Source: a virus (lineage: Duplodnaviria; Heunggongvirae; Uroviricota; Caudoviricetes). Taken from it: a stretch of DNA of 64,000 bases. Positions 62,309 to 62,940 of this stretch are shown here, piece after piece. Every line of letters starts with the position of its first letter. The stretch's first letter is position 1. The notes beneath the pieces were generated by a model that was not told where the DNA came from, searched no databases, and worked only from the letters and a program-made list of their open reading frames with translations. The stretch lies in the IMG/VR virus record IMGVR_UViG_2541047802_000007; one strand, 5' to 3'. The translations under genes were made by a program, and so were the position numbers.

Positions 62309-62315
62309 GAAAGAG

Positions 62316-62338
62316 AACCTGCTACGGCAGGTTTTTAT
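62316..62338. terminator. Bidirectional terminator hairpin (aacctgc-tacg-gcaggtt + TTTTT) between ogr and convergent BRCT-domain gene
   Basis: Perfect 7-bp inverted repeat followed by T-run. Confidence 0.55.
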
Positions 62339-62817
62339 TCATCTGGGATCTCACCCGTTTCAAGAAAATGTATAAAGCCAGGCTCATCTATGATGATTGT
62401 GCCTTTCATCCTGGCTGCCGATACTTTTGATGGGCCTGCATTGTAACCGCAACAGAGCATCTGAAGGCTTTGGGTTACAGAGGTTCTTACCGTTAATCCT
62501 TGTTCATTCGCCTTATCAACCAATCTTTCTTTATCTGCTTTCTTAAATCCGGTGAAACACACATCGAATGTATTTTTTTTCGGACCAGACTGCTTAGTGA
62601 GATGTGAGTAGTTTTCGGGGAGGAATGACGCGCATTCCTGAATGGCTTGTTCTGGTGAATCGTACTGTTTAAGAATGCGGTCTTTTCGGAAGGTTTTTAT
62701 TCGATCGGTGTTCTTACAAATGCCCTGTATATGATTTTCGCTATAACTGATGCTCTGTATTGAGTGAACTCCGATACGACCATTTGCATTGATGTAAACA
62801 AAGTGAAGTTCTTCCAT
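62335..62817 (-). CDS. 160-aa protein with C-terminal BRCT-like domain; cargo gene between ogr and attR
   Basis: C-terminal about 75 aa resembles BRCT domains such as that of NAD-dependent ligase; AT-rich. Confidence 0.6.
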   Translation of the reverse strand: MEELHFVYINANGRIGVHSIQSISYSENHIQGICKNTDRIKTFRKDRILKQYDSPEQAIQECASFLPENYSHLTKQSGPKKNTFDVCFTGFKKADKERLVDKANEQGLTVRTSVTQSLQMLCCGYNAGPSKVSAARMKGTIIIDEPGFIHFLETGEIPDE

Positions 62818-62900
62818 GTGAAACCTCTTTGCATGATTTCAAGATGGCGACAGGCAAGATGGACGCAAAAGTCTGTCGCCATTTTGCCGCCACTACCAAA

Positions 62901-62932
62901 GAAAAAGGGGCTACGCTTTTACGTAACCCCTT
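62901..62932 (-). terminator. Rho-independent terminator of ssrA
   Basis: On minus strand GGGGUUACG-loop-CGUAGCCCC followed by U-run directly after tmRNA 3' end. Confidence 0.6.
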
Positions 62933-62940
62933 GATTTATT

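Follow-up and report, generated by a model that had tools for sequence, protein, structure and literature searches.

In the E. coli lineage of P2-like prophages integrated at ssrA, the last prophage gene before the attachment (att) site attR encodes a small protein in which a WYL domain is joined, through a linker, to a BRCT domain; the copy analysed here lies at positions 62335..62817 of a 64,000-nucleotide stretch (the window) of the IMG/VR virus record IMGVR_UViG_2541047802_000007. The gene is an accessory, or "moron", cargo gene of P2/186-like temperate phages, and its domain composition and moron status, taken together, are close to certain. In more distant P2-like phages it is found in the lysogenic operon, directly downstream of the repressor gene cI, and in LF82 its orthologue is transcribed in uninduced lysogens. 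The role of the protein is a matter of more tentative interpretation, and is discussed below in terms of protection of the lysogen against incoming phages and of several other functions.

Domain composition of the protein

The first-pass annotation of this DNA had proposed an antisense open reading frame of 160 amino acids at this position, and its status as a real gene is confirmed by purifying selection, by conservation and by the existence of identical copies that had already been annotated. The coding sequence, which is present in the list of open reading frames of the window, occupies 483 bp of the reverse strand, stop codon included, and begins with an ATG codon preceded, 6 nt to its 5' side, by the Shine-Dalgarno sequence GAGG. 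Copies that are 100% identical to it are annotated in E. coli genomes, and the PHROG 2561 profile spans the full length of the protein with an E-value of 2e-77. Comparison with the orthologue of phage Cartapus yields a ratio of nonsynonymous to synonymous substitution rates (dN/dS) of 0.07, and in comparisons with homologues of approximately 73% identity the proportion of synonymous differences (pS) is saturated, at 0.82-0.91, while that of nonsynonymous differences (pN) is 0.18-0.19. The low dN/dS value, together with saturated pS and low pN, identifies the reading frame as a coding gene.

The C-terminal part of the protein (aa 84-157; 62347..62568, reverse strand) had been suspected of being a BRCT domain, and this suspicion is borne out both by profile matches across the homologues and by the predicted alpha/beta BRCT fold. 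The window protein itself scores 19.5 bits against Pfam BRCT (PF00533), for which the gathering cut-off is 21.3 bits; several members of the family exceed this cut-off, and 31 of the 40 aligned homologues match at E<=0.01, with a best value of 2e-6. The AlphaFold model calculated from the 40-sequence alignment (mean predicted local distance difference test score, pLDDT, of 90.7) displays two domains separated by a lower-confidence linker at approximately residues 74-83, and its C-terminal domain has the alpha/beta arrangement that defines the BRCT fold. Among solved structures, the family profile lies nearest by sequence to the BRCT domains of RFC1 and of NAD-dependent DNA ligase (LigA). BRCT domains of the phosphate-binding class carry a Ser/Thr-Gly pair in the beta1-alpha1 loop and a lysine at the start of helix alpha2, and both elements are present in the window protein: T89, G90 and K131 are unchanged across the 40 homologues, and K131 aligns with the lysine of the "GQSK" stretch in the BRCT domain of human RFC1. 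In BRCT domains the phosphate pocket is built from the equivalent positions, which in RFC1 bind the 5'-phosphate of DNA. The C-terminal region is one BRCT domain, belonging to the RFC1/LigA class, in which the T-G…K pocket for phosphate is intact.

The N-terminal part, which had been described as a short domain of unknown type, is identified as a WYL domain (62599..62817, reverse strand) by fold search, by homologue profiles and by its signature motif. The five-stranded Sm-like barrel is made up of residues 1-53, and two helices continue the domain to residue 73. Modelled alone, this domain reaches a pLDDT of 92.4, and the fold search places it closest to known WYL domains, its best structural matches being PafBC, CapW, BrxR and DriD. 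A sequence search of the PDB with the N-terminal profile gave only spurious matches to TubZ (E ~0.3); the fold search was needed for the identification. Pfam WYL (PF13280) does not match the window protein at E<=1; it does match 3 of the 40 homologues, with a best value of 1.5e-5, and with the distant family members P0153, P0255 and P0193 it reaches 27.6-28.6 bits, its cut-off being 21.8. PADLOC WYL models, in turn, match 5 of the 10 long relatives scanned, and a conserved "KTFRKDRI" stretch corresponds to the usual WYL signature, a TFRxDRI-type motif. The WYL-BRCT architecture as such had already been listed in 2014 by Makarova et al. (PMC4012209).

The databases name this family in different ways. 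PHROG 2561, JGI and the Cartapus record employ "DNA ligase", "NAD-dependent DNA ligase" and "putative exonuclease", and PGAP names the E. coli copies (WP_000391794) "BRCT domain-containing protein" or "hypothetical protein". That the protein is in fact an enzyme, as the names in the first group imply, is scarcely credible. Profile searches and the structure model revealed no catalytic domain in the 160 residues, all of which are accounted for by WYL domain, linker and BRCT domain, and the matches to ligase and exonuclease profiles are confined to the BRCT segment and reach 11-26 bits, the cut-offs being 369-1051. NAD-dependent DNA ligase was rejected as an identity, its models being matched solely at their C-terminal BRCT domain (the last ~100 positions; 11-20 bits against cut-offs of 369-1051), and the adenylation, OB-fold, zinc-finger and HhH domains of these ligases have no place in the window protein. 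The DEDDh exonuclease PRK06063 was rejected likewise, the match covering positions 229-307 of 331, which is its BRCT tail, at 26 bits against a cut-off of 389. Since the similarity covers the BRCT domain alone, the names "DNA ligase" and "putative exonuclease" are artefacts. A Foldseek search against BFVD returned just ligase BRCT domains and unnamed phage proteins.

Distribution, placement and transcription of the gene

The WYL-BRCT gene is present in 176 of the 5,426 complete E. coli genomes, and 165 of these carriers have ogr, the gene and ssrA in one uninterrupted stretch; wherever the gene stands beside ssrA, it is accompanied by ogr. The first-pass annotation had suggested looking for the same gene at the att sites of other ssrA-integrated P2-like prophages, and these 165 genomes are such cases. 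Of 50,697 phage records, 28 carry the gene, and most P2-like phages, including P2 and 186, are without it; the free phages of the 186-like group that possess it include Cartapus and Yersinia phage MLG42. That the gene might be a native host gene of the ssrA region was considered and rejected, in view of its presence in ~165 of 5,426 E. coli genomes, always with ogr, and in free phage genomes. The expectation that there is normally no gene between ogr and the att site holds for P2 itself but fails for the 186-like lineage, where the WYL-BRCT gene regularly occupies this slot.

Placement within the lysogeny module varies from phage to phage. The gene order in Cartapus is cI–int–RES-like gene–attP–WYL-BRCT gene, with ogr convergent, and in MLG42 it is cI–int–attP–WYL-BRCT gene. 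The gene situated between int and attP in Cartapus (locus L003, 2508-3713), which MLG42 does not have, encodes a 401-aa "RES protein, NAD+ binding domain" product, and cargo genes are therefore found on both sides of the Cartapus attP; the attL of the prophage analysed here falls outside the window. Elsewhere the gene is associated with the repressor: it lies 13 bp 3' of a 186-type cI in a Pectobacterium prophage and 8 bp 3' of a 186-type cI in a Yersinia ruckeri prophage, lies immediately 3' of cI in Mannheimia PHL101 and in Vibrio PV94, and, as a 371-aa variant, directly follows an S24-type cI in a metagenomic P2-like prophage. A Serratia prophage displays the order HTH–Flk_N–WYL-BRCT gene–int (HTH, helix-turn-helix), and Burkholderia phages the order XRE–hypothetical–WYL-BRCT gene, after which comes a convergent D gene. 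The IMG/VR locus search kept close relatives at prophage ends only, and the distant contexts are single-contig look-ups. Across these phages the gene co-occurs with three unrelated repressor types (186-type CI, S24-type CI and XRE/HTH_3) and with several att sites, and in the window its guanine-plus-cytosine (GC) content is 41.4%, compared with 53.5% in the adjacent late genes. The variety of repressors and att sites, the absence of the gene from most P2-like phages and its low GC content argue for portable cargo; both its patchy occurrence and a composition unlike that of the core genes are what is expected of a moron.

The family as a whole is widespread, its profile matching 2,683 clusters (50% identity) at E<=1e-3 and 198 at E<=1e-30. 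In longer relatives (P0133, P0153, P0205, P0170, P0237) the WYL-BRCT unit is fused to transmembrane segments, and some of these proteins have an additional WYL domain; in others (P0160, P0176, P0179, P0195, P0122) a "domain X" of ~200 aa (phrog_36782/31886), with no match in Pfam, PADLOC or the PDB, is fused at either end. Not all family members lie in a recognisable prophage. A 228-aa homologue, P0067 (locus L096, 5001-5687), is surrounded by ordinary metabolic genes, the nearest 5 kb being free of phage genes, and a distant homologue on a Candidatus Pseudothioglobus contig (locus L009, 6001-7519) stands tail to tail with a gene for an Mrr-type restriction nuclease. The island in which the latter is found, which is small and integrative, also holds AlpA, a DNA methylase and an integrase, and resembles a defence island outside P2-like phages.

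Evidence for transcription comes from the RNA sequencing (RNA-seq) of LF82 lysogens by Misson et al. 2023 (PMC9928086), where the Cartapus orthologue, CARTA_32/LF82_783, which is 98.8% identical to the window gene, is listed as a moron. The expression table of that study gives CARTA_32 the coordinates 2736109-2736591, and these, along with the tag, fit the 483-bp gene and identify it as the one matched here. Its normalised counts in the table amount to 107, compared with 33 for CI, 12 for int and 6.9 for the Cartapus background, and its signal is thus 15-fold over background and 3-fold over CI (PMC9928086). The signal is still high in exponential growth and inside macrophages, and CARTA_32 is the top-transcribed Cartapus gene among the rows of the expression table that were examined (PMC9928086).

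Possible functions

We tentatively favour a role as a lysogen-expressed protective factor, which would exclude, or defend against, incoming phages via their nucleic-acid intermediates; the defence or anti-defence function suggested in the first-pass annotation is a reasonable conjecture. Having no catalytic domain, the protein would presumably act through binding and nothing else. A ligand of nucleic-acid type would be recognised by the WYL domain, single-stranded DNA being what all WYL proteins of known ligand bind, and the pocket of the BRCT domain would hold a phosphate, be it the 5'-phosphate of DNA at a nick or recessed end, or that of a phosphorylated or ADP-ribosylated partner; the protein would thereby cap or flag replication, recombination or entry intermediates of a superinfecting phage, leading to its exclusion or abortion. 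The transmembrane-fused relatives would fit an action at the step of DNA entry.

Exclusion is favoured on account of the cargo character of the gene and its transcription in lysogens, the anti-phage genes in the other cargo slots of the prophage, the cI-adjacent position of the gene, the Mrr-type nuclease and methylase beside the distant homologue, and the similarity of the BRCT domain to that of the defence candidate PDC-S48. Both of the other cargo slots hold recognised anti-phage genes, namely PD-T7-1 and an AIPR/AbiU-like gene. The PD-T7-1 open reading frame (469 aa; 1660-3069, forward strand), located just 5' of the portal gene at the tin/old position of P2, is matched by PADLOC with an E-value of 1e-196 and has no match in Pfam; both the anti-phage gene and the P2 cargo hotspot in which it resides were known already. 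The AIPR/AbiU-like open reading frame (566 aa; 11935-13635, reverse strand) runs on the opposite strand among the late genes, at the orf30 position of P2, matches PF10592 (E 1.6e-25) and PADLOC AbiU (E 1.7e-24), and is probably abortive-infection cargo. The known cargo genes of P2 (old, tin, fun/Z) are anti-phage, and lambda keeps rexAB in the position after cI.

A number of observations nevertheless weigh against such a protective role. Literature searches on BRCT in connection with phages, prophages or defence yielded no study of the WYL-BRCT family and no phage-resistance phenotype, and a search that combined WYL, BRCT and phage found solely the 2014 listing of the architecture. No model of PADLOC-DB 2.0 matches the protein over its full length; PDC-S48 is matched by the BRCT segment only, and the match to SspE is weak. 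In addition, the protein is not basic, with an isoelectric point (pI) of 6.95 for the whole and 5.3 for the BRCT part, which is unusual for a DNA binder. The arginines with which CapW contacts single-stranded DNA (ssDNA), in the motif RWHVR, are not kept, the window protein having N-HIQ-G at these positions (strand order read by eye), and the WCX domain, which completes the ssDNA pocket of CapW, is absent. As the protein has no effector domain, any defence mechanism would have to be stoichiometric. With regard to transcription, the promoter scan of the interval from the ssrA terminator to the start codon detected no sigma-70 consensus, and the RNA-seq signal, arising as it does beside the strongly transcribed ssrA, may in part represent read-through past the ssrA terminator.

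Other functions have been weighed along with this one. A particular form of single-gene prophage immunity without an effector, which we regard as doubtful, would have the protein sense a 5'-phosphorylated junction of single- and double-stranded DNA (ss/dsDNA), or another phosphate-bearing nucleic-acid signal, produced by an incoming phage, and either block it stoichiometrically or signal to a host or prophage partner via the BRCT pocket; the membrane-anchored and "domain X" fusions would then be elaborations of the same sensor. It is also conceivable, but unlikely, that the protein acts as a sensor of DNA damage or induction for the prophage itself, the WYL domain sensing ssDNA and the BRCT domain signalling to CI, Int or another phage or host protein, in such a way as to tune lysogeny, induction and excision. 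Those WYL proteins with a known ligand that figure among the top structural matches do sense ssDNA as a damage signal (PMC11662680), and in many lineages the gene is closely linked to cI, at 8-13 bp, or stands beside int and att. However, a dedicated partner of the core switch would not be expected to accompany three unrelated repressor types and to be absent from most P2-like phages, and the protein has no HTH; the missing WCX domain and CapW arginines count against this function as well.

The two remaining possibilities are both improbable. The first-pass annotation had envisaged that the protein targets host DNA ligase or repair factors. As such a modulator of host DNA transactions, a free BRCT domain of LigA/RFC1 type would bind to, or compete with, LigA or repair and replication factors at nicks, with an effect on the repair or fitness of the host. 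The proximity in sequence to the LigA and RFC1 BRCT domains speaks for this idea, but similarity to LigA is generic to the BRCT class, and constitutive high expression in healthy lysogens is hard to reconcile with the hindering of an essential ligase. With similarly little probability, the protein could serve in counter-defence or DNA-end protection during the phage's own infection, for instance by keeping nucleases of the host away from cos ends or replication intermediates. P2-type cos ends are ss/dsDNA junctions carrying a 5' phosphate, and a WYL domain joined to a BRCT domain could recognise junctions of this kind; the orientation of the gene, its position with the lysogenic genes instead of the early lytic or late genes, and its strong transcription in uninduced lysogens argue for the contrary.

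The attachment region, the split ogr gene and known systems

The gene is flanked by a hairpin terminator, as had been claimed, and a second hairpin was detected by the terminator scan beyond the other end of the gene. The former (62316..62333), recognised in the scan and in the sequence, is located between the convergent 3' end of ogr and the WYL-BRCT gene, and is a probable bidirectional terminator. The latter (62905..62932, reverse strand) consists of a 12-pair stem and a T run directly after the 3' end of the transfer-messenger RNA (tmRNA) gene ssrA (62941..63303, reverse strand); it is supplied by the phage, is conserved in the attP of free Cartapus and MLG42, and separates ssrA transcription from the WYL-BRCT gene. 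The att core (62941..62985, reverse strand) comprises the last 45 nt of ssrA, which are duplicated in the phage attP. Identity with the attP of Cartapus and MLG42 begins at ATGTAGGAATTTC, and the alignment with these free phages consists of the 45-bp ssrA core, the phage-borne replacement terminator and then "GTGGCGGCAAAATGGCGACAG". The 45 nt of ssrA and the strong terminator are thus carried by the phage (62905-62985, reverse strand; locus L003 of Cartapus, 3714-4000; also in free MLG42 DNA), so that an intact tmRNA gene with a terminator is restored on integration.

The 10-bp inverted repeat that had been reported upstream of the gene is exact, with arms ATGGCGACAG (62844-62853) and CTGTCGCCAT (62873-62882) separated by a 19-nt gap; the window holds 9 such inverted repeats, versus ~1.7 in shuffled sequence, and a 10-bp repeat alone is unremarkable. 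The repeat is made up of copies of the motif TGGCGRCA, three of which occur within 48 bp of the window (62845..62892), two of them direct and spaced 11 bp apart and the third inverted, in what would be the P' arm of attP. In the Cartapus attP the motif is present five times within 255 bp, the int-side arm having two direct copies 11 bp apart and the other arm two direct copies and one inverted, and doublets with this 11-bp spacing are found on both attP arms in free Cartapus and MLG42 DNA. An alignment of the upstream regions of ten lineages shows no conservation beyond the TGGCGRCA doublet and the ribosome-binding site; the doublet is invariant 5' of the gene in all ten, three of which have integration sites different from ssrA. 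Where the WYL-BRCT gene comes after cI, as in Pectobacterium, Vibrio PV94 and Y. ruckeri, the doublet stays beside int and not beside the WYL-BRCT gene, and for this reason the repeat is assigned to the recombination site. An operator specific to the gene was rejected as an explanation for the repeat, since the doublet follows int and att even where the gene sits elsewhere. From this architecture, the TGGCGRCA motifs are most likely integrase arm-type sites.

The ogr gene beside the WYL-BRCT gene is not intact: the open reading frame at 62159..62308 holds its 3' part only. The 3' fragment of ogr extends over 62177..62308 (forward strand) and the 5' fragment over 25466-25552, and an intact 219-bp ogr is present in E. 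coli S88. The two fragments are separated by a D108 (Mu-like) prophage, complete and 36,619 bp long (25553..62171, reverse strand), whose canonical Mu ends were read directly, which is 99.8% identical to D108 over 4.2 kb, and which is bordered by a 5-bp target duplication, GCCAG (25548-25552 and 62172-62176). The D108–ogr junction is absent from all 5,426 complete E. coli genomes of RefSeq, in which alignments begin at window position 62168. The insertion, which probably disables late-gene activation of the P2-like prophage, leaves the WYL-BRCT gene and its terminator intact.

As an object, the WYL-BRCT gene is already known: it has been annotated, belongs to a catalogued phage family, has a listed architecture and an orthologue reported as a moron. 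It is hence a hypothetical gene that was correctly spotted, and not a discovery. The family is nonetheless of interest, being widespread and having a conserved place in the lysogenic module of P2/186-like phages, yet bearing the label of a ligase or exonuclease. A role for a WYL domain joined to BRCT instead of HTH would extend the view of WYL proteins as ssDNA-sensing transcription factors, and the slot adjacent to att or cI might join the two known P2 defence hotspots as a cargo slot. The defence systems of the P2 hotspots have been described by Rousset et al. 2022 (PMC9122126), in the text of which the terms ogr, attR and BRCT are absent and the ogr-att slot is not mentioned.

The closest counterparts of the gene are Cartapus gp32 (CARTA_32), E. 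coli WP_000391794 and PHROG 2561, which represent the same gene, with 98.8-100% identity and the same ogr–att slot at ssrA; nothing of substance distinguishes Cartapus gp32 from the window gene, apart from the D108 prophage that splits the neighbouring ogr in the window. The N-terminal domain shares the WYL fold and the TFRxDRI-type motif with CapW, BrxR, PafBC and DriD, regulators of wHTH-WYL-WCX architecture (wHTH, winged HTH) that sense ssDNA (PMC11662680). Unlike these, the window protein has neither an HTH, for which no profile match was obtained, nor a WCX domain, and carries a BRCT as its output domain; membership of this class of transcription regulators was rejected, the winged HTH, the WCX domain and the RWHVR arginines all being missing. 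The BRCT domain shares the T-G and lysine residues of the pocket with the DNA-binding BRCT domains of RFC1 (p140) and LigA, but is acidic and is joined to a WYL domain, not to a clamp-loader or ligase core. The PADLOC candidate PDC-S48 matches the window BRCT, as well as WYL-BRCT family members, through its C-terminal ~70 residues (E 1.8e-7; profile positions 335-406 of 411), its other ~330 residues having no counterpart in the window protein. Finally, while it has no sequence relationship to lambda rexAB, to P2 old, tin and fun/Z, or to the genes of the P2 hotspots, the WYL-BRCT gene resembles all of these in being an accessory, low-GC and patchily distributed gene that is located at the end of a prophage or within a lysogenic operon and whose transcripts are present in the lysogen.

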